From Bryobacterales bacterium (GTDB lineage Bacteria > Acidobacteriota > Terriglobia > Bryobacterales > UBA6623), in contig CBDCOA010000003.1 in NCBI GenBank assembly GCA_965219585.1, positions 593,375 to 657,374 of the forward strand: 64,000 bases of DNA. Reading direction: 5' to 3'. The notes under the pieces are model-generated. The model worked only from the letters and a program-made list of their open reading frames with translations, did no database searches and was not told where the DNA came from. Positions within the stretch are counted from its first letter, which is position 1; every line of letters starts with the position of its first letter. Shown piece by piece: positions 52,159-64,000 of the stretch. Made by a program: the position numbers and the translations under genes.

Positions 52159-52400
52159 TTGAGGCGGCCTCATAGAGGTCGAATCCCCAGTTCCACACCT
52201 TGCGGACTCGCAGCCTGCCGCTCCGAAGGGCGGTTGCGAGCGAATTGGCAGAGGCCGAGCATCGTCGCCGGGATTCGAGACAGGCTTCGACCACGTGAGC
52301 CCGCGCTCAGTTTGCCTCCCGCTAGAACGGTAAAATATCTAAACCTTTCGGGGCCTGTGCCGGATCCGAAGAACGGCGAGGCCTCTTCTCCGCCGGCCGA

Positions 52401-53534
52401 ATGCTGTTGCGGAGGCCGTGCGAAAACGCTGGAACCAAGAACGTGAGCAGTATCGACAAGTTGACGCGAGCCATTTCTCGCGGACTGGGTTTCCTTGAGG
52501 AGCATCAGCACTCGGACGGACATTGGCAGGACTTTGGCCTCCCCTTCGAGAGCGACATGTGGGTGACTGCATATGTGGGCACCATGGTGTCGGGGGTTTC
52601 GCTTGGCAACACTCGTGAGATGGCCGAGCGCGGCTACGCTTGGCTCCAGCAGGTTGCCAATCGCGGTCGATGGGCTTATGCGGACGAGGCAGCCCTCGAC
52701 GCCGACTCCACCATTTGGGCCTCCCGCCTCGGAGAGCAACTGGGACTCGGGATCTCTTCGGAGACCTTGGAATTCCTGCACAAACACGTCTGCGAGGACG
52801 GTCTAGTCGCGACCTACATGCACGAGGACTTTCTCGAGAGATACGGCGACAGCTTTCAGATGCAGAACCCTGGCTGGTACCGTGGCCACGCTTGCGTCAG
52901 CAGCGCAGCCAGTTCGCTCGGCGGGTTGCCTTGGCGGGACAGAATAGTTCGCGCGCTAAGCCTCGCCCAACAGTCAACGGGTTCTTGGCAGGGATATTGG
53001 TGGCTCGACCCCGAATACGCTACGGCGCTCAGCATTGAGGGCCTCCTTGGCTCCGTAGAATATGCACATAGCGTGGAGGCCGGGGCGCAATGGTTGTCCC
53101 GCCGAGCGCGAGACGGTGCGGCGAAGACACCGCACTTTCCCGAAGGATCGCCCTTTGCGACCGGTCTCGCCCTTCGAGGGCTCTGCATGGCTGGCGAGCG
53201 CGGCCCCGTTCAAGAGCGCATAGGCGCTTGGCTAGCAAACGCACAGAAGCGCGACGGTAGCTGGAGTTCTTCCGCTACGCTGCTGGTGCCCAACCCTCAC
53301 ATGATGCGCCCCAACCCGCTCTTGTGGCTTCCCGGGGACCGCAAGCGAACCCGTTGGGAAACAGTCTTTTGGGACCAACACCGGCTCCATACAACCTCTA
53401 CCGTGATCAACGCCCTTTGGCAGCTGCTGGTAGCCATGGAACTCGATGGGAACGCTAGCCCGAGCGCCGAGGATTCAGACCTCGGCGAATCCGACAGCGC
53501 CAAGGCGGAGCCTAGCCCGGGGGCCGCGAGTTAA
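52401..53534 (+). CDS. Prenyltransferase / squalene-cyclase-repeat (alpha/alpha-toroid) protein, no signal peptide
   Basis: Has three QW-type repeats (LEEHQHSDGHWQD, LAQQSTGSWQGYWW, LANAQKRDGSWSS) and an acidic, disordered C-terminus. An alternative GTG start lies at 52443. Confidence 0.6.
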   Translation: MLLRRPCENAGTKNVSSIDKLTRAISRGLGFLEEHQHSDGHWQDFGLPFESDMWVTAYVGTMVSGVSLGNTREMAERGYAWLQQVANRGRWAYADEAALDADSTIWASRLGEQLGLGISSETLEFLHKHVCEDGLVATYMHEDFLERYGDSFQMQNPGWYRGHACVSSAASSLGGLPWRDRIVRALSLAQQSTGSWQGYWWLDPEYATALSIEGLLGSVEYAHSVEAGAQWLSRRARDGAAKTPHFPEGSPFATGLALRGLCMAGERGPVQERIGAWLANAQKRDGSWSSSATLLVPNPHMMRPNPLLWLPGDRKRTRWETVFWDQHRLHTTSTVINALWQLLVAMELDGNASPSAEDSDLGESDSAKAEPSPGAAS

Positions 53535-56473
53535 GCCGACTGGCGACGGACAAGGTCTTGAAACAGACCCTCTGTTGCCGCCAGTTCCGCGAACGACCCT
53601 TGCTGGACCACTCTTCCTGCGCTCAGCACATAGATCCGATCCGCCTGGCGCAAGGTGGAGAGCCGGTGGGCAATGACAAGTCGCGTGGCAGTAAGGCTTG
53701 CGAGATTGTCCATGACCTCGGCCTGGCTCTCGTTGTCTAGCCAGTTCGTGGCTTCGTCCAAGAACAAGATGCGCGGATTCCGAATCAGGGCGTGGGCGAC
53801 GACGATCCGCTGGCTTTCGCCTCCCGACATGACGCTGGCTCTGGCACCAACGTTTGTCATCATGCCCATCGGCATCGCTGAGATCACCCGATCCACGGCC
53901 GCGACCTGAGCTGCATTCCATACCTCCGCCGAAGTCGCATCCTCGTAGTCGCCGACAATGTTGTCCCACACGTCTTCCGGATGCAGCTGCACATCTTGCG
54001 GGACCACGCCAACATTGCGACGCAATTGCTTGACATTGAGATGTTTGAGGTCGCGGCCATCGTAGTACACCGCTCCAGACGATGGCTGGTGCAGGCCCAG
54101 CGCGAGCTTGAATAGCGTGCTCTTGCCCGAACCTGACTCGCCCGTTATGGCGACGAACTCGCCGGGATTTGCTCGTATGGACACGTCGTCCAGCATCAGT
54201 GGGCCCTCAGGATCGAATCGAAAGCTGACATGATCAAACGCGACCTCGCCTCCCAAGTGGTCGACGGATTCTCCGTCAACGTCTACTTCTGGAGGCTCGG
54301 CAAGCAGTGGCTGCAACTGTGTGAAGGCCGGCACGCTAGCAGCGACTGCACTGAAAGAGCAGCTAAGGTTGGTCACGGCCGACTGGAACAGCACCAACAG
54401 GGTGTAGACGACCAGAAAGTCCCCGACCGATAGCGTGTCCCGGTCTGCCGACGAAGCCGCCAGGATCAGCCCGGCACCGGCCAGGAAGGGCAATGCTTCC
54501 CCGAACGCCCGCAGATGCTGTTCGAAAGCACCAACTCTCAGCTCGGCGTGCTTCTGCTCGCGGTAGTCTCGAGCCCAAGCTGCGAACGCCGAACCCTCCG
54601 CTCCGGAGACTCGCAATCGAGTAATGCCGTTGATGAGTTGGAACAGCCGGCCCGCAAGGCGCTGGACAGCGTGGATCAGGCGACCGTGGGGCGCGATCTG
54701 ACACATGCCTAGTGCCAGGGTCACTGCCAGGGACACAAGACCGAATGCGAGGGTCACGCTACCTAGCACGGAGTCGTAGAAGAAGGTGACCAACAGCGCG
54801 GGGGACAGGAATGCGACTGAAAGAACAGAGTTGCCCACAAAGCCGTGCGCCGCGTCGCGGAGGTTCTGGAACGCCATGCCCCGCATTGCGAGGTCACCTG
54901 CGGCATACCGGTGCAGGATGGCTGGCGAGAGCCGGAGCATTCGGTCCCAGAAGGAGGCTTCCATTCGCGATGCCGCCCGTCCTCCCAAGCGCATCAATGA
55001 AGTGCCTCTGAGAACGTGCAAGAGCGCCCCGATGACCGCGAGCGTCGCCAGTACAGCCGCGATCGGGTACAACAGATCGGTATCGCCGGTCGGAATCATC
55101 TCGTCCGCGACAATGCCCAGCACTATCGCCGGCAACAGCATGACCAGGCCAGCCGCCAGCCCGCTTGCCACGAATCGCACGAGATCGGCGGAGACACCGT
55201 TGCGCGCTATGCGCAAAAGGTCTCGCGGAGCGGCGCTGGCGGAGGGCAGGGGCGTGTAGAAGATCCACGCTTCAGGACGCAACGATTCGGAAGCACTAGC
55301 CGTCATCCTTGTCTTCCGCCGCCGGATCGGATCGACCTGTCGGTAGGCTCCGAAGGATCTCGGCAGGAGAGCAACGGGCTGGCCGTCGACAGCCCGGAAC
55401 GCCAGCATTGGACCGCTGTCACCGGTCCACCATTGATCTGCGGTGTCAAGCCGGACTCGTCGCGCACGCACCCCCGACGCGGCGAGCACCTCGGCGAGGC
55501 CTCTGGTCGCATCCGATGTGGTCGGCCGCGCAGGCCACTTGAATTCAATGCCCTGATGCCGGCCAATGATCCGCAACGCCTCTTGCAGCGGTGATTCGCC
55601 CGCGCCTTCAGCGCCATCGACCGGAAGATCGTAGAGATTGAACAGGCCGCGCCGGGCGCTATCTTCGTCCACTCGGCGACTGGTGGCCCGTGCCCAGTCC
55701 AGGTTTGCTTGGTCGACGACTGCCAGCCTGCGATTGAGCCGTTCCAAAGAAAAGCCCATGGCGTGGAAGCTTGCCAAAGCAGGGAGCAATAGGCCCTTGT
55801 CGGCGAGCGCTTCGGAAGACTGGGCCGAGACCGCCACCTCCTTGTCTGTTACGGTCAGCCAGAGACTTGGCGTGAGCGCTACGGCGGTGTGGCCGGCATC
55901 CTGTTCCGGCAAGTCCAGCCCGACGTCCAGCAGCCCCATGAACAATGCCGAGCCTGGAGGTAGTTCCGACACCCATGCCACGCCCCGGCGCGCCGAGAGC
56001 GTGCCCGGTTGCGCCGTTAGAGCCTTCCCCGGTTCTGCCAGCAGATCCGGGCGCGGCCGGTCGCCGACGTCCCGCGACAGAACGGCCGAAACGTCCGCGA
56101 GCCAAGCGTCGACTTGTTCTGCAAATTCTTCGCTTCGGACAGCGGCCAAGCTGGCTACGGGAATGCGCCGGAGCACCGTGCCGGGCAGTCCCTTTGCAAG
56201 CAGCCCGAGAGTCGTGTCTTCGACCTGAGGCTCCACTCCGAGCAGCAGGCGTCCGGTGTCGGTGCGCATCAGGTGCTGCGGTGCAGACTGCTCCACTCCG
56301 TCCTGCCACTCGGTCAGAAACAGGTCGACCGCGCCTTCCTCGATGAACCACGAGCATTGCGGGTCGGCCATGTCGAGCGGCAGATTGCCGGCGCACGGGA
56401 CCCGTTCGCCGAACTCTAGGGCGAGCTCGGCGAGGGAGCGGAATTCCCGGTCTGCCATCGGACTAGCCAGCAC
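53531..56473 (-). CDS. NHLP-type bacteriocin system ABC transporter 2 (cNMP-binding-like N-domain, permease, ATPase; no peptidase)
   Basis: 980 aa. The C-terminal ABC ATPase has Walker A GESGSGKST, signature MSGGESQR and Walker B ILFLDEAT. The long N-terminal region starts with a cyclic-nucleotide-binding-like fold. The start overlaps the stop of the upstream ABC gene. Confidence 0.75.
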   Translation of the reverse strand: MLASPMADREFRSLAELALEFGERVPCAGNLPLDMADPQCSWFIEEGAVDLFLTEWQDGVEQSAPQHLMRTDTGRLLLGVEPQVEDTTLGLLAKGLPGTVLRRIPVASLAAVRSEEFAEQVDAWLADVSAVLSRDVGDRPRPDLLAEPGKALTAQPGTLSARRGVAWVSELPPGSALFMGLLDVGLDLPEQDAGHTAVALTPSLWLTVTDKEVAVSAQSSEALADKGLLLPALASFHAMGFSLERLNRRLAVVDQANLDWARATSRRVDEDSARRGLFNLYDLPVDGAEGAGESPLQEALRIIGRHQGIEFKWPARPTTSDATRGLAEVLAASGVRARRVRLDTADQWWTGDSGPMLAFRAVDGQPVALLPRSFGAYRQVDPIRRRKTRMTASASESLRPEAWIFYTPLPSASAAPRDLLRIARNGVSADLVRFVASGLAAGLVMLLPAIVLGIVADEMIPTGDTDLLYPIAAVLATLAVIGALLHVLRGTSLMRLGGRAASRMEASFWDRMLRLSPAILHRYAAGDLAMRGMAFQNLRDAAHGFVGNSVLSVAFLSPALLVTFFYDSVLGSVTLAFGLVSLAVTLALGMCQIAPHGRLIHAVQRLAGRLFQLINGITRLRVSGAEGSAFAAWARDYREQKHAELRVGAFEQHLRAFGEALPFLAGAGLILAASSADRDTLSVGDFLVVYTLLVLFQSAVTNLSCSFSAVAASVPAFTQLQPLLAEPPEVDVDGESVDHLGGEVAFDHVSFRFDPEGPLMLDDVSIRANPGEFVAITGESGSGKSTLFKLALGLHQPSSGAVYYDGRDLKHLNVKQLRRNVGVVPQDVQLHPEDVWDNIVGDYEDATSAEVWNAAQVAAVDRVISAMPMGMMTNVGARASVMSGGESQRIVVAHALIRNPRILFLDEATNWLDNESQAEVMDNLASLTATRLVIAHRLSTLRQADRIYVLSAGRVVQQGSFAELAATEGLFQDLVRRQSA

Positions 56474-57700
56474 TGACGAGCCGGAAGTACGTGCCGTCCC
56501 GGTCCTGCATCAAGTCGTCATGGGTGCCGCGCTGGACTTCCGCGCCTTGCTCCAGCACGATGATCTCGTCGCAGTCTCGGACCGTGCTCAACCGGTGCGC
56601 CACGATCAGGCAGCTGCAGCCGCGACGACGCAATGCGTCGTCCACACGCTCTTCCGTTGTGGCGTCAAGGGCGCTCGTCGCCTCGTCGAGTACCAGGACG
56701 GTCGGGTTGCCAGCCAGCGCGCGCGCGATCTCCAGCCGCTGCTTCTGCCCTCCGCTGAAATTCCCCCCGCCTTCGTCGACCTGCGTCGCATAGCCGAGCG
56801 GCCTGCTGAGAATCTCGTCATGAATGCCGGCATCCCTTGCCGCAGCGACCAGGACCTCGTCGGGCACGGTCGGGTTCCAAAGCGTAATGTTCTCGCGCAG
56901 GCTGGCTGAGAAGAGGACGAAATGCTGGTCCACCATCGACACCGAGCGCGACAGCACGTCTTCCGGTATCTCGGACCGACCGCGGCTGTCGAAGAGTATT
57001 TCGCCGGACCAAGGCTGATAGACACCAGCAACCAACCGCGAAAGGGTCGATTTTCCTGAGCCGCTCGGACCGACAACGGCAACCCTCTGCCCCGGCTCGA
57101 TTCTCAAACTGAAATCCTTGATCAGCGGCGGGCGGCTCCGGTTGTAGCCGAAGGTAACGTTCCGCAATTCGACGCGCCCAGAGAGACGCAGCCGCCCGTC
57201 GAGCGTAGCGATTGCCTCTGAGGCTTGGCTTCGCCCGGCCAAGCCCGGATCCTCCTCGGCTTCAGTGATGTCTTCCAGTCTCTGCATGTCGCTCTCGAGA
57301 GCCTGGCGCTCTCCGAAGAACTCCACGAACCGCCCGACGGGCGCAAGGAACATGGACGCCACGATGTAAAACGCCACCAGCGTGCCCAAAGTCATCGCTC
57401 CAGCCACGACCTGGGCAGCCCCGAAGGCCAAGACCGTCACGTTGCCGAGAACCGTGAACAAGTCCGGCAGGGCCGCGTTGCAATGGCCCAGCTCGGCGAA
57501 TCGTTGGTGAGCGGCCAGCGCGCGAGCCTGATGGCCGCCCCAGCGCGAAAAGAAGCGGTCGTCCGACGCTGTCACGCGCAGGATGTCCGTCCGCTCCAGC
57601 ATCAACATGCCGATGCCGACCAGCAGTCCACGCTCGCGCCTCAGGGCATGGCTGCTGTCCGTTCGAAGTCGCGTGACCCACCAAGCCGCCACCGCGTTTA
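56463..57700 (-). pseudogene. C-terminal fragment of the C39-peptidase ABC exporter (NHLP system ABC1), separated from its 5' part by IS110
   Basis: Reads ..NAVAAWWVTRLRTDSS...FFSRWGG... then the ATPase (Walker A GPSGSGKST, signature FSGGQKQR, Walker B VLVLDEATS). It joins in frame to 59486-60442 when 57701-59490 is removed. Confidence 0.85.
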
Positions 57701-59485
57701 CTGAGAAACGTCATCGTGGGGGAGGCGCACCGCTCCCCCACCCCGCGGTCGTGAAGTTCCGCGGTCCGCCGTTGTATGCCCACCAGCCGGCGGATCAGCA
57801 GCCCGCCACGGTAGCCCCGATCTGTGTCCGGAGCGGTGCCGCGCCACCGTCGGCGGTGGGCCTAGGATGGGATCGAACTCAGGCGGCCGCCGGCTGCGGG
57901 CCGCCGGAACGGGCGCGCTCGATATAGCCGTGCTCTTCGAGCTTGCGCAGCCAGCGGGCCGCGTTGCGGTCCACCACCAGCTTGTCGTAGTCGATGCCCG
58001 GATCGATGTAGGGACGCTGCTCGCGCAACATCGCCACGATCGTGCGCAGCAGCTTGTGCGCCGTCGCCAAGATGGCGCGCTTGTACGGCATATGCGCCTT
58101 GAGCGCGTTGTGGTGGCCGTGGAACTGCGAGCCCTTGCTGCGCACGGCGCCGTGAGCGCACTCGGCCAGCGTGGCCCGCAGCGTGGCATTGCCGCGCCGC
58201 AAGCGCCCCGAGCGCCGCTTGCCGGCACTCTCGTTGTTGCCCGGGGCCAGCCCGGCCCAAGCGGCCACGTTGGCCGTCTTGTCGAAGGCTGACAGGTCGG
58301 GCCCCAACTCGACCAAGATCGCGCAGGCGCTGCCGCGGTCAATGCCCGGCACCGTCTCCAGCAAACGCACCTGTTCCTCCAGCTCGGACAAGCCCTCTGC
58401 CAGGCGGGCATCCAACTCCGCGATGCTCGCGTTGGCCGCCTCGTGCGTGCGCAGCAGGTCGCCCAGCTTCCACACCGCGTGCGCATCCAATTTCGCTTGC
58501 AGCACTTGCGCGAGCAACTCGCGCTTGTGGCGCACGTGTCCGCTGAGCGTGGCCAGGATCTCGTCCGGCGAGTTGCCCGCGGTCAGCCCCGCCAGGATCT
58601 TGCGCCCATTGCGCCCGAAGATGTCGCTCAGCGCCCCGCCCAGCCGCAGCCCGTCGTGGTCCAGCGTCTTGTGGATGCGGTTGCGCGCCCGGCTGCGCTC
58701 GCCCACCAGCTTGCGGCGGTAGCGGCTCAGCTGGCGCAACTGGCGGAACTTGCGCGGCGGCACGTAGCTGGGCCGACACAGCCCGAACTGGCAAATGCGC
58801 GCCAGCCAGACGCTGTCGGCCACGTCGCTCTTGCGGCCTTTCACCTGCCGCACAAATTGCGCGTGGAATAGCTGCGGCGCGATGCCGGCGGCCTCCAGCG
58901 CCTCCCACGGGGCCTGCCAGAAAATGCCGGTGGCCTCCATGGCCGCGGCCGTGACGCGATGGCTGTGCAGCCACTGGGTCAGCTCTGCCAGCCCGTCGGG
59001 CAAGGCGCTGAACTGGCGCGTGGCGCACTGCACGCCGCCGCCGGGCTGGCACAGCCGCACCGAGGCGGTGATCTGCATCTTGTGCACATCGAGTCCGGCC
59101 GCGCGTGGATGCACGACGTGCATCTCGTCGGGCTGCAGGCTCTCGCCTGCTGGGGTGGTCATGCTGTATCCTCCTGTACAGCGGAGGCGGGTGATGCTGG
59201 CCCGGGGAAATCCCTCGGCTCGCGAGCGAGCCGGGGCTCGATTTACTGTGCGTCCTAGGCCGCAGCCTGGTACGGTACGGGGCTCGAAGGGGCGCAGCGG
59301 CGTCAGTTTAGATAACGAGGTCGGGGGCCACGGCCCTTGCGGGGACCGCAGCCCTTCCACCACTTAGAGATCCGATCTTGCACCCACCTCCGCTACCTGC
59401 AAACCTAGCAACTGAGGTGGCCCCTACGCCGCCGGCAACCCTCGCCCGTTTCATGCATACGGGGTGGCTGCACGCGGCCATGGGT
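57701..59485 (-). mobile_element. IS110-family insertion sequence (~1785 bp) inserted in the C39-ABC exporter gene
   Basis: The 5-mer GTTTA is present at both junctions (57696-57700 and 59486-59490). Deleting one copy plus the intervening 1785 bp restores a continuous 729-codon ORF (...LALAALN|AVAAWWV...). The element carries an IS110-type transposase and has no obvious terminal inverted repeats, as is usual for this family. Confidence 0.85.
57879..59162 (-). CDS. IS110-family (DEDD) transposase/recombinase
   Basis: The ATG at 59160-59162 is preceded by AGGAGGA. The N-terminal part has AAGLDVHK...MEATG (RuvC-like DEDD domain). The C-terminal part has the Transposase_20-like region (VPGIDRGSACAILVELG..., AGLAPG...SAGKRR). 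Confidence 0.9.
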   Translation of the reverse strand: MTTPAGESLQPDEMHVVHPRAAGLDVHKMQITASVRLCQPGGGVQCATRQFSALPDGLAELTQWLHSHRVTAAAMEATGIFWQAPWEALEAAGIAPQLFHAQFVRQVKGRKSDVADSVWLARICQFGLCRPSYVPPRKFRQLRQLSRYRRKLVGERSRARNRIHKTLDHDGLRLGGALSDIFGRNGRKILAGLTAGNSPDEILATLSGHVRHKRELLAQVLQAKLDAHAVWKLGDLLRTHEAANASIAELDARLAEGLSELEEQVRLLETVPGIDRGSACAILVELGPDLSAFDKTANVAAWAGLAPGNNESAGKRRSGRLRRGNATLRATLAECAHGAVRSKGSQFHGHHNALKAHMPYKRAILATAHKLLRTIVAMLREQRPYIDPGIDYDKLVVDRNAARWLRKLEEHGYIERARSGGPQPAAA

Positions 59486-60442
59486 GTTTAGCGCGGCGAG
59501 AGCCAGCACGACCAGCGCGAGCGCCGGATCGTACGCTAGCATGGCCGCCAAGAACACTGCGCTCGTCGCAATCTCGATCAACAAGCCGAGAAAATGCTCC
59601 GACAGGCCTGTGGCGACCTTGTCAACGGCAAGGACGCGATCTGTAAGGTCGCCGACGAGGCGGTGGCTGAAATACTCGACGGGCAACCGGAGCAGCCGTG
59701 AGACACACCGATTTCCAGCGATCACTGAGGCCCGCACGGACAGCCGCAGCAGCCACCGCTGCTTCAACCAAGCCAGGCCATAGACGAGTATCGCCGTGCC
59801 ACCCATGATCGCGGCGATGACGCCACCCCAAGGCTCGCGGCCCCCAACAACGCGATCCACGAAGATACCGAGCATCACAGGTGTAACGAGCGACAGCACG
59901 GCCAGCAGCAATCCGCACACAAAGACGTATGGCAACGCGCCCGAATGACCACCAAACCAAGCCCGGAACTGCCGGAGGGTGCTGGCCCGGGCACCTCCCC
60001 GCATGAAGTCCGGTCCCGGAGCGAACTCCAGCGCGATCCCGGTGAAGCTCTTCCGGAATTCCTCCTCAGGGATCTTGCGGCGTCCTGTGGCTGGGTCGTT
60101 GAGATAGAAGTGCCCCCGATCGAAGCCTTCCAAGATGACGAAGTGATTGAACTCCCAAAACAGGACCAGAGGCAGCGACATTTTTCGCAGAAGCCTCGCG
60201 GGCGCGGTCCGGCCGGTGCACTTCAGCCCGTAATGCCGTGCGGCGCGGACGAGGCCGGCGGCGGAGGAGCCGTCCCGGCCCACTTCACACCGGCCCCGCA
60301 ACTCAGCGAGCGGCACCCAGCGCCCGAAATGCGCAAGGACGCTGCCAAGGCACGCAGCACCGCATTCGGCCGCATGCATCTGCAGGAGCAGCGGTGTCTC
60401 GATGCGCCGCCGCTCACGGGGGATTTGGCGCTTCTCGCTCAA
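59486..60442 (-). pseudogene. N-terminal fragment of the C39-peptidase ABC exporter (NHLP system ABC1)
   Basis: Has a C39 peptidase domain with the catalytic Cys context LLQMHAAECGAACLGSVLAHFG and the later NHFVILEG (His). The first TM helices follow. The native sequence ends at ..LALAALN, then reads into the IS. Confidence 0.85.
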
Positions 60443-60454
60443 TGTCGCTTGTCT

Positions 60455-61369
60455 CTATGGGCGGACCGAATTCGTTCCGAGCAGCCGAGAGCTCAGCAAG
60501 GCTATCGGCCGGTACTGCCCCAGCACGACGCGGATTCGGCAAGCCGCACCGTCGAGGTCGAGCGCGTCCGCCCTCGGATCGAGAGCAACGTCAACTCGGT
60601 GTACTTCACCCACAACCGGAGCGCGCTCAGCCGCCAGCCACTTCGGGAGGGGACCTGGGGTCACCAGAGCCACGCCTGCATTCAGCTGACGGACTCCGCC
60701 GTTGGGCACCGCGACCTCGATGGATGCCTCCATCCCGGATCGGATGCTTCCCGCAAGCCTCGAACCAACTTGCGTCACTGCTTGGACGGTATTGCCATCG
60801 GCCGGAGTCCGAATCTGCGCGACCGCAGTGCCAGGCGGCATGTAGTCTCCCGCAGTCAGCCCCAAGGCCATCACTTCGCCGTCGACATGGCTCGCAAGTG
60901 CCTCTCTTGCCGAACGGCGCGCTTCCAGCTGGAGCATCGCCGAGCGGGCAGCGGCTAGCCGCGAGCGCAAAGCCGCACCACCCCCGGCCGAGGCCCGAGT
61001 CTCCTCTTGCAACAGATCCACGCGGTCACGCAGAGCCTGTATCTCGCGTTCCAGTTCTGGCACGCTTTGTCGCGCAACCGGATCTCCGGCCGCGACTTGA
61101 TCGCCGACATCGACCAGATATTCCACGAGATGGCCCGGCTCGCTCGAGACTACTTCGTGGCGGTCCCCGGGCTTGATCAGTACGCCGTCGATTGTGACTG
61201 TTCGGACAACGCTACCGAACAGCCCCCATGATGCGAGCGCAAGCACCAACGCGCCAATGCCAGCCAGCAGGAGGCGTTCGTGAGGCGCCGCGATGCGCAG
61301 GAGACGGTCGAGTTGCTGGCGCTCGCTCCTGCTGGCGGCGGCTTCCTCCAGAAACGGACTGTTGAACAC
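60455..61369 (-). CDS. HlyD-family secretion adaptor of the NHLP bacteriocin system
   Basis: Has an N-terminal TM anchor (LLLAGIGALVLALASWGLF), a lipoyl-like motif (G.LVEYLVDVGDQVAAGDPVA), a short coiled coil and a beta-barrel region. It sits between the precursor gene and the ABC exporters. Confidence 0.75.
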   Translation of the reverse strand: MFNSPFLEEAAASRSERQQLDRLLRIAAPHERLLLAGIGALVLALASWGLFGSVVRTVTIDGVLIKPGDRHEVVSSEPGHLVEYLVDVGDQVAAGDPVARQSVPELEREIQALRDRVDLLQEETRASAGGGAALRSRLAAARSAMLQLEARRSAREALASHVDGEVMALGLTAGDYMPPGTAVAQIRTPADGNTVQAVTQVGSRLAGSIRSGMEASIEVAVPNGGVRQLNAGVALVTPGPLPKWLAAERAPVVGEVHRVDVALDPRADALDLDGAACRIRVVLGQYRPIALLSSRLLGTNSVRP

Positions 61370-61429
61370 CGGCCTCGCGCCCCCCAGCTACGGCAGGGAT
61401 CCCGCCGAACAATCGCAGCCCAGTCGCTG

Positions 61430-61468
61430 GCTGCTCGGCTCTGGCGGAAACCGCCAGAGCCGAGCAGC
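61430..61468 (-). promoter_or_regulatory. Perfect 18-bp stem / 3-nt loop hairpin between the precursor gene and hlyD
   Basis: GCTGCTCGGCTCTGGCGG-AAA-CCGCCAGAGCCGAGCAGC. No U-tract follows on the minus strand. Confidence 0.7.
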
Positions 61469-61608
61469 GGCCGTACCTGCGAGCAAGCCTCGAACGGGCG
61501 TCGGGAGAACGTTCCCCCCGAGACCGACGGGGCCGGGGCTCGCGATCTGGACATGCTCGAGCACAAGTAGAACCGCTGTCCCCCTTGTGCCCACGATGAG
61601 TTCGAACG

Positions 61609-61860
61609 CTAGATGCAGCAGCAGCAGCGCCCGGCCGAGATAGCCTCAAGCTGCTCCTCGGCGAGGTCGGTGGCAGGCAGAGCCACGTGAACCGTCTGCA
61701 TGTCGTTCTCATGCACCTTGATGGCAACCTCGTCCGGAACTTCTACCCCTAGTTCCTCTTCGACTGCCGCCTTGGGATCCGACAACAACCTGCTGCGGAA
61801 GTCGCCATCAACGCTGGCCCTCTCTGTGAGTCGGGCGCCTAGTTCACTTACAGAATCCAT
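61609..61860 (-). CDS. NHLP (nitrile-hydratase-like leader peptide) family RiPP precursor, predicted core RCCCCI
   Basis: 83 aa: MDSVSELGARLTERASVDGDFRSRLLSDPKAAVEEELGVEVPDEVAIKVHENDMQTVHVALPATDLAEEQLEAISAG|RCCCCI. AGGAGGAA lies upstream of the ATG. The leader matches the NHLP pattern (..F...LL.DPKAA...ELGV..P..V.IKV.E......H..LP......E.L) and ends in a double-glycine-type site. Confidence 0.85.
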   Translation of the reverse strand: MDSVSELGARLTERASVDGDFRSRLLSDPKAAVEEELGVEVPDEVAIKVHENDMQTVHVALPATDLAEEQLEAISAGRCCCCI

Positions 61861-63843: not shown

Positions 63844-64000
63844 CTCCCGCTCAGTCTTGGAAGGTCGTGCCCCTTGAACTCACAAACGAGCCTCGGCCCC
63901 CGGCTGCGTATAGCTGGGCACCCCCGGTCAGGTACCGGCTCATAGCTCCTAGCTGGGGTTGGAACCAGTCGAGGACACCTCAGAGCAGGGGCCACGATGA

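Follow-up and report, generated by a model that had tools for sequence, protein, structure and literature searches.

An IS110-family insertion sequence splits the C39-peptidase ABC exporter gene of an NHLP-leader peptide cluster in a Bryobacterales bacterium

The stretch of DNA analysed here (the window: 64,000 nucleotides of Bryobacterales bacterium, assembly GCA_965219585.1, contig CBDCOA010000003.1, forward-strand positions 593,375 to 657,374) holds a gene cluster for a ribosomally made peptide that is modified after translation (RiPP), in which the gene for the C39-peptidase ABC exporter is interrupted by an insertion sequence (IS) of the IS110 family. We found the same gene uninterrupted in a nearly identical sister strain, where it encodes exactly the protein obtained when the two halves are rejoined. 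An active IS110-family element has thus very probably inserted into the exporter gene in recent times, an ordinary loss-of-function mutation caught at the strain level. The event is of a known kind, and it is unusually well documented by the matching empty-site allele. The source assembly comprises 7.9 Mb in 3 contigs, and the relatives used for comparison were Bryobacterales and other sponge-microbiome metagenome-assembled genomes (MAGs).

The interrupted gene and its intact counterparts

Profile searches were made with Pfam domains and with the NCBIfam families TIGR03796, TIGR03797, TIGR03794, leader_NHLP, NF033542 and TIGR03604. The interrupted gene consists of the following parts:

59491 to 60442, minus strand: N-terminal part of the exporter, 319 codons, with the C39 domain and the first transmembrane helices (Peptidase_C39, E=6.5e-32; TIGR03796 profile positions 2-307)
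57701 to 59490, minus strand: IS110-family insertion sequence, 1,790 bp with one copy of its TAA repeat counted, co-oriented with the exporter and without terminal inverted repeats
56463 to 57700, minus strand: C-terminal part of the exporter, 410 codons, with the remaining transmembrane helices and the ABC ATPase domain (TIGR03796 profile positions 311-709)

The two halves match consecutive stretches of TIGR03796 (NHLP family bacteriocin export ABC transporter peptidase/permease/ATPase; 710 positions) and are therefore two collinear parts of one protein. The break falls after codon 319, within the transmembrane domain. Accordingly, the open reading frame at 60442..59405 (minus strand) contains Peptidase_C39 and the first 150 positions of ABC_membrane, while that at 57692..56463 (minus strand) contains ABC_tran, the C-terminal fragment also holding the rest of the transmembrane domain. 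The N-terminal frame runs 26 element-encoded codons further, to a stop at 59405-59407, which gives a product of 345 amino acids (aa). When 57701-59490 was excised in silico, a single frame of 729 codons was restored, with the junction ...VVLALAALN-AVAAWWVTRLR..., and the fused product is identical for all six deletion registers that the repeat permits. The earlier note on this DNA, which had described an exporter split by an IS110 element and fused in frame to 729 codons on its removal, was exact in its coordinates.

A protein search retrieved P0001, a 729-aa protein that is 100% identical to the fused halves (0 amino-acid differences) and that matches TIGR03796 in one stretch, at profile positions 2-709 of 710, with 860.9 bits (cut-off 853.3). 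It is encoded on a 7,882-bp Logan contig (L149) of run SRR33343648. This contig aligns to window positions 61684..59486 and 57700..52038, with the five bases TAAAC common to both matches, and its junction reads GCGCTAAACGCG once, exactly as predicted for the empty site. The window and the contig share 99.9% DNA identity over 7.85 kb, with 5 single-nucleotide polymorphisms (SNPs) and one 3-nt indel; 2 of the SNPs lie inside the exporter gene and both are synonymous. Since the SNPs flank the site on both sides, one of them only 8 nt away (the window strain has C at 59498 and T at 57549), the contig represents a sister strain and not a revertant. The empty site in a strain this close indicates that the insertion is real, recent and polymorphic at the strain level. 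Recency had been proposed earlier, and it is borne out by this allele.

Moreover, the gene is uninterrupted in related genomes. In the congeneric sponge MAGs L039 (JAJDZN01), L040 (JAPPMG01) and L041 (VXMF01), the C39-ABC gene is one frame of 729-733 aa with 88-91% identity. All three share the gene order SagB-type dehydrogenase, NHLP precursor, HlyD, C39-ABC, ABC2, a convergently encoded repeat protein of terpene-cyclase-like type, and sulfatase. The reconstructed empty site aligns to the three congeners without gaps, CTG AAC or CTC AAC standing there where CTA AAC stands here. Close and distant homologues retrieved were all single proteins of ~710-740 aa.

The rest of the cluster surrounds the broken gene:

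53531 to 56473, minus strand: second exporter subunit ABC2 (TIGR03797), intact, 685 bits
60455 to 61369, minus strand: HlyD-type NHLP secretion adaptor, intact, identified by profile search
61609 to 61860, minus strand: NHLP-leader precursor with the C-terminus ...AISAG-RCCCCI, identified by profile search and sequence

The precursor scores 65.6 bits against leader_NHLP (cut-off 50.9). ABC2 lies slightly below its cut-off of 709 bits, and HlyD, at 97.7 bits, is also under its cut-off although it is the best family match and syntenic. The exporter thus has the genomic context described for TIGR03796, with an NHLP-leader precursor, a TIGR03797 ABC2 and a TIGR03794 HlyD alongside. A fused E1-like/YcaO cyclodehydratase of 784 aa (TIGR03604, 263 bits) is encoded at C3:657755-660109 (plus strand; C3 is the contig that holds the window), just past window position 64000, and its gene is divergent to the adjoining SagB-type dehydrogenase gene. 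Apart from the exporter, the RiPP cluster is complete, with the cyclodehydratase included just beyond the window. It should be noted that the length of the precursor core differs between the two strains: (TGC)4 in the window (61615-61628) gives RCCCCI, and (TGC)3 in the sister strain (L149:84-95) gives RCCCI.

The IS110 element, its junctions and its guide-like RNA segments

The element is built as follows:

59488 to 59490, minus strand: left (5') TAA junction repeat (TTA on the plus strand), from junction comparison
59163 to 59485, minus strand: 5' non-coding arm (left end, LE), 323 nt, a conserved structured RNA region and candidate bridge RNA
57879 to 59162, minus strand: DEDD recombinase gene, 427 aa (PF01548 and PF02371; NF033542)
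57701 to 57878, minus strand: 3' non-coding arm (right end, RE), 178 nt, ending ...GACGTTTCTCAG, from junction comparison
57698 to 57700, minus strand: right (3') TAA junction repeat, from junction comparison

The recombinase carries DEDD_Tnp_IS110 (PF01548, E=2.8e-23) and Transposase_20 (PF02371, E=8.7e-20), and its match to NF033542, 'IS110 family RNA-guided transposase', reaches 244 bits (cut-off 140), which places it in the IS110 family. It is a distant match (E ~1e-10) to the solved transposase structures of IS621 and ISCro4. The ends of the element are not inverted copies of each other (5' ACACCCATGG, 3' GTTTCTCAG), and TAA flanks every copy. An LE longer than the RE, with guide-like covarying segments in the LE, assigns the element to the IS110 group rather than the IS1111 group.

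The genome carries four copies that match one another at 100% over 1,790 bp: the exporter copy and those at C3:5529952, C2:1516849 and C2:1526826. Seven more are full-length and 94% identical, a further copy is truncated, several fragments were also found, and related elements occur in 18 of 30 congeneric genomes. Other copies also lie in or near genes. The copy at C3:5529952-5531741 interrupts a PSCyt1/DUF1549/DUF1553 gene (814 aa once rejoined), that at C3:1702923-1704703 interrupts a protein kinase-Sel1 repeat gene (Pkinase-Sel1; 964 aa once rejoined), and a third lies just upstream of a candidate gene with a B12-binding domain, as judged by reading the sequence. Since the copies break unrelated genes, the exporter is one of several targets of a recently active element of low specificity.

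Several arrangements of copies were seen besides. In G020:C1, related elements form head-to-tail tandem pairs (e.g., 6143427/6145199, 6060586/6062358 and 5521821/5523593) with a spacing of 1,772 bp and one core between them, and L120:1500 is likewise a head-to-tail pair; such pairs share the structure of a circle junction. The element-end join ...GTTTCTCAGTAAACACCCATGG... is the sequence expected of circles or tandem copies. Furthermore, the exporter's element (C3:651075-652864) and a 94%-identical copy (C3:676234-678014) lie in inverted orientation, 23 kb apart, and bracket the N-terminal exporter fragment and the HlyD, precursor, SagB and YcaO genes, a segment that would be inverted if the two copies recombined.

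To define the junctions, we compared ~20 distinct ones on the left side and 21 on the right, taken from this element and from its relatives. In the orientation of the element, the layout is flank-C|TAA|AC(A/C)CCCATGG ... GTTTCTCAG|TAA|variable, and the flanks are otherwise unrelated. Only TAA is common to both junctions across copies. The earlier note had reported GTTTA at both junctions; it is indeed present at 57696-57700 and 59486-59490, but it consists of the TAA of all copies plus two coincident bases, the extra GT of this copy coming from the element at one junction and happening to occur in the gene at the other. In other words, AC after the left-hand TAA is the element's first two bases, while AC after the right-hand TAA belongs to the gene.

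A C precedes TAA in 19 of 20 left junctions, the exception being a head-to-tail element junction. We considered whether this C could be element sequence and rejected it: removal of 1,791 bp would shift the frame of the gene and open a gap in the orthologue alignment, so the conserved C belongs to the target. The case for TAA as the crossover core is weakened by the relative L126, whose left junction reads TAA and whose right junction reads CAA. The true core is therefore probably AA, in which case target and donor would each specify the T of TAA separately.

The LE is strongly conserved. Aligned over ten diverged sequences, among them four lineages with recombinases of only 56-60% identity, it forms a domain with a 13-bp closing stem and with compensatory changes at 11 of 39 consensus pairs. 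Two of its segments are unpaired and in top-strand sense:

59304 to 59314, minus strand: segment (i), UAUCUAAACUG (UAUC-U-AA-ACUG), left-target-guide-like (CU+AA, then AC); covaries with the left target flank in relatives
59241 to 59248, minus strand: segment (ii), CAGUAAAU (CAGU-AA-AU), left-donor-guide-like; matches the element's 3' end CAG-TAA, with four haplotypes

Each segment varies together with the sequence that it would recognize, in at least 4 haplotypes:

Segment (i), this element and L126: CU+AA; left target flank CT+AA
Segment (i), L127, L128, L129, L133 and L141: CC+AA; left target flank CC+AA
Segment (i), L140: UUG+AA; left target flank TTG+AA
Segment (ii), CAGU: element 3' end CAGT
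Segment (ii), UGGC: element 3' end TGGC
Segment (ii), CGGC: element 3' end CGGC
Segment (ii), CAGC: element 3' end CAGC

Bridge RNAs are non-coding and have one loop that binds the target and one that binds the donor, a left and a right guide being present in each. In the bridge-RNA model, the left target guide (LTG) and the left donor guide (LDG) pair with the bottom strand, core included (PMC11208160). The LE segments resemble an LTG and an LDG, which suggests a candidate bridge RNA with an as yet incomplete assignment. A match of GGUGGGUG to the 5' end was considered as a right-hand guide and is better accounted for by its place in one strand of the long closing stem. Scanned against Rfam at E<=1, the element gave chance matches only and no bridge-RNA family.

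The ~20 insertion sites share only (Y)C-TAA, so insertion is not directed to one conserved target sequence. The effective target, as read from these sites, is (Y)CTAA, and the candidate guide appears to specify little beyond CT+AA, ~4-6 bp. The right target flank is unconserved; AC comes first in 4 of 20 sites against 6.5% expected, a weak signal. In segment (i), the core is followed by AC, the same two bases with which the element begins, and this would fit a handshake-type dinucleotide (PMC13626964). The genome contains 6,585 CTAA and 428 CTAAAC sites. The exporter site matches CUAAAC at 6 of 6 positions and is formed by the codons of Leu318-Asn319, CTA AAC; it exists only because Leu318 is encoded by CTA in this lineage.

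This short-guide, low-specificity, bridge-RNA-like system is the by-product most worth following. Covarying guide-like RNA segments combined with a very short effective target bear on how bridge recombinases set specificity, and the pair of 99.9%-identical alleles with and without the element offers a clean natural before-and-after case of IS110 insertion.

Consequences for peptide export

Judging from domain architecture, the split in the transmembrane domain should inactivate the ABC1 subunit, leaving no transport. Dedicated export of the predicted thiazol(in)e-type RCCCCI peptide is probably lost or reduced. Leader cleavage has to be considered separately. Isolated peptidase domains of peptidase-containing ABC transporters (PCATs) are active in vitro. 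Given that the C39 domain is complete in the 345-aa product, with its Cys and His motifs (QxxxxECG and NHF) intact, this truncated N-terminal product may still cleave leaders.

Moreover, a paralogous NHLP cluster lies ~46 kb away (C3:690000-708000). It encodes an intact TIGR03796-type exporter (62% identity; 827 bits, just below the family cut-off), together with a YcaO protein (784 aa), a protein similar to GlnE (798 aa), a 432-aa protein that carries an NHLP leader at its N-terminus, an ABC2 and a HlyD that is short (218 aa). A transposase gene of the ISKra4 family directly adjoins this HlyD gene. The paralogous exporter may accept the same NHLP leader and partly substitute for the interrupted one. 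The earlier claim that the insertion abolishes both leader cleavage and export and so silences the cluster is thus unproven, given the intact C39 domain and the intact paralogous exporter.

As a gene disruption the event is minor, since IS hits on accessory genes are routine in symbiont genomes.

Competing explanations and known systems

We propose that an element with a DEDD recombinase and a long 5' arm that holds a structured guide RNA region would have recombined into the CTAAAC site of the exporter in one strain of a sponge-associated Bryobacterales species. The LE segments UAUCUAAAC and CAGUAAAU would set the choice of target and donor, respectively, and the element would land nearly anywhere CTAA occurs, breaking other genes too. 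Some points weigh against this proposal. The inserted allele is known from this one assembly, as no second occurrence of the exact N-fragment protein or of the junction DNA was found. The loss of transport is inferred from the architecture of the protein. As for the bridge-RNA part, a search for the right target and right donor guides (RTG, RDG) by complementarity to the donor junction gave no segment that is both conserved and covarying. Exact-pattern scans of JGI metagenome contigs gave 0 matches for the empty site and 0 for the left junction, the first pattern having C where the sister strain has T.

The same insertion could be a reversible switch, in which precise excision of the kind seen for IS492 in the eps locus turns RiPP export on and off in the population. 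Scarless excision through a circular form has been described for the IS110 family (PMC11208160), and mobilisation of IS492 controls phase variation of extracellular polysaccharide (EPS) (PMC2536512). Here, neither half of the gene is damaged, the element runs in the direction of the operon, which means that read-through could supply guide RNA and recombinase, and the head-to-tail dimers of relatives mimic circle junctions. However, the only empty allele found belongs to another strain by its SNPs on both sides of the site, and protein and pattern searches of public sequence gave neither a revertant nor a circle junction for this element. In addition, excision of IS621 is reported to be inefficient (PMC13626964) and, according to a preprint, mostly yields a single-stranded circle, with the donor site left intact (10.64898/2026.08.31.748434), while a target of ~4 bp and the disruption of unrelated genes are what random insertion would give. 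We consider such a switch quite unlikely, and the insertional switching suggested in the earlier note lacks support for these reasons. A bolder version, in which a minimal-guide bridge-RNA recombinase travels co-directionally in the operon and operon transcription drives guide RNA, recombinase and excision as a self-resetting export switch in a sponge symbiont, appears very unlikely.

Loss of the exporter might instead have been selected, whether on account of a costly or reactive product or because the exporter is redundant beside the paralogous cluster. The intact paralogous export set is in line with this, and so would be P0124, a 642-aa protein of the same 90%-identity cluster on a 2.5-Mb ENA contig, which begins only at residue 88 and is therefore without the catalytic cysteine of the C39 domain. 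Its shortness may reflect a second, independent lesion in another genome; equally, it may be an artefact of the start-codon call. By contrast, the precursors of the three congeners keep tetra-Cys cores (RCCCCF and RCCCCA) alongside intact exporters, which argues against a general selection against the tetra-Cys product, an idea of the earlier note that is left unsupported, and the case is a single event in one assembly. Selected inactivation is accordingly unlikely. Both the switch and the selection ideas are speculation.

That a repeat copy was misplaced inside an intact gene during assembly is highly improbable. An uninterrupted version does exist in a public run, and the inserted allele was found in no second source. 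Nevertheless, the junctions lie at a bona fide CTAA site and are built exactly like those of the other copies (C|TAA|AC...CAG|TAA), the insertion is on a contig of 5.86 Mb, and the uninterrupted contig differs by SNPs, so that it is not simply the same molecule. The possibility of two genes as the normal state, one for a free-standing C39 peptidase with half a transmembrane domain and one for a half-transporter, is close to negligible, and nothing was found in its favour: every homologue retrieved is a single protein, the split lies within the transmembrane domain, and the uninterrupted syntenic orthologues in the congeners together with the 100%-identical intact protein refute it. This comparison with related genomes had been proposed as a check on the interruption, which it upholds.

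The inserted element resembles IS621 and the IS110-group bridge-RNA recombinases (PMC11208160; PMC11208158) in its DEDD (PF01548) and PF02371 recombinase, the lack of terminal inverted repeats, a 5' arm longer than the 3' arm, a short core repeated at both junctions, and a structured LE RNA with unpaired left-target-plus-core and left-donor-plus-core segments in the sense of LTG and LDG. Unlike that group, it specifies ~2-4 nt of left target plus the AA core, with an unconserved right flank, and its insertions are dispersed over unrelated sequences rather than concentrated in one repeated site such as REP. Its recombinase is only distantly related, it has no Rfam match, and the right-hand guides were not found. 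With IS492 of Pseudoalteromonas atlantica it has in common that an IS110-family element sits in the gene of a secreted product in a marine surface- or host-associated bacterium, with a short flanking direct repeat and, in principle, the possibility of scarless removal. The high-frequency precise excision and phase variation of IS492 were shown experimentally, whereas neither an excision product nor a circle junction or revertant was seen for the present element.

As for the cluster, all three members of the NHLP bacteriocin export triad (TIGR03794 HlyD, TIGR03796 ABC1 with the C39 peptidase, and TIGR03797 ABC2) are present and syntenic in the congeners. In the srp proteusins of sponge microbiomes, the core LCCCW of SrpE is converted to thiazolines by a YcaO enzyme (PMC10858898). 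The cluster studied here is similar in its NHLP-leader precursor with a short Cys-run core (RCCCCI) and its YcaO cyclodehydratase, here fused as E1-like/YcaO, and a SagB-type dehydrogenase is present. It differs in that ABC1 is interrupted, the core contains four Cys but lacks Trp, and the region examined showed no brominase. For mining or expressing such an srp-like cluster, the exporter is best taken from the uninterrupted allele, which is now documented together with the exact empty site.

Exporters with 46-72% identity (L042-L118) occur in MAGs from many phyla, among them Nitrospirales, Gemmatimonadota, Alphaproteobacteria, Gammaproteobacteria, Dehalococcoidia, Acidimicrobiia and Binatia, several of them named as sponge-associated taxa (e.g., Poriferisocius and Poriferisodalis). 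At the three of these distant loci that were examined (L042, L043 and L104), HlyD and ABC2 adjoin the exporter in every case, and an NHLP precursor with a Cys-run core is present at two.

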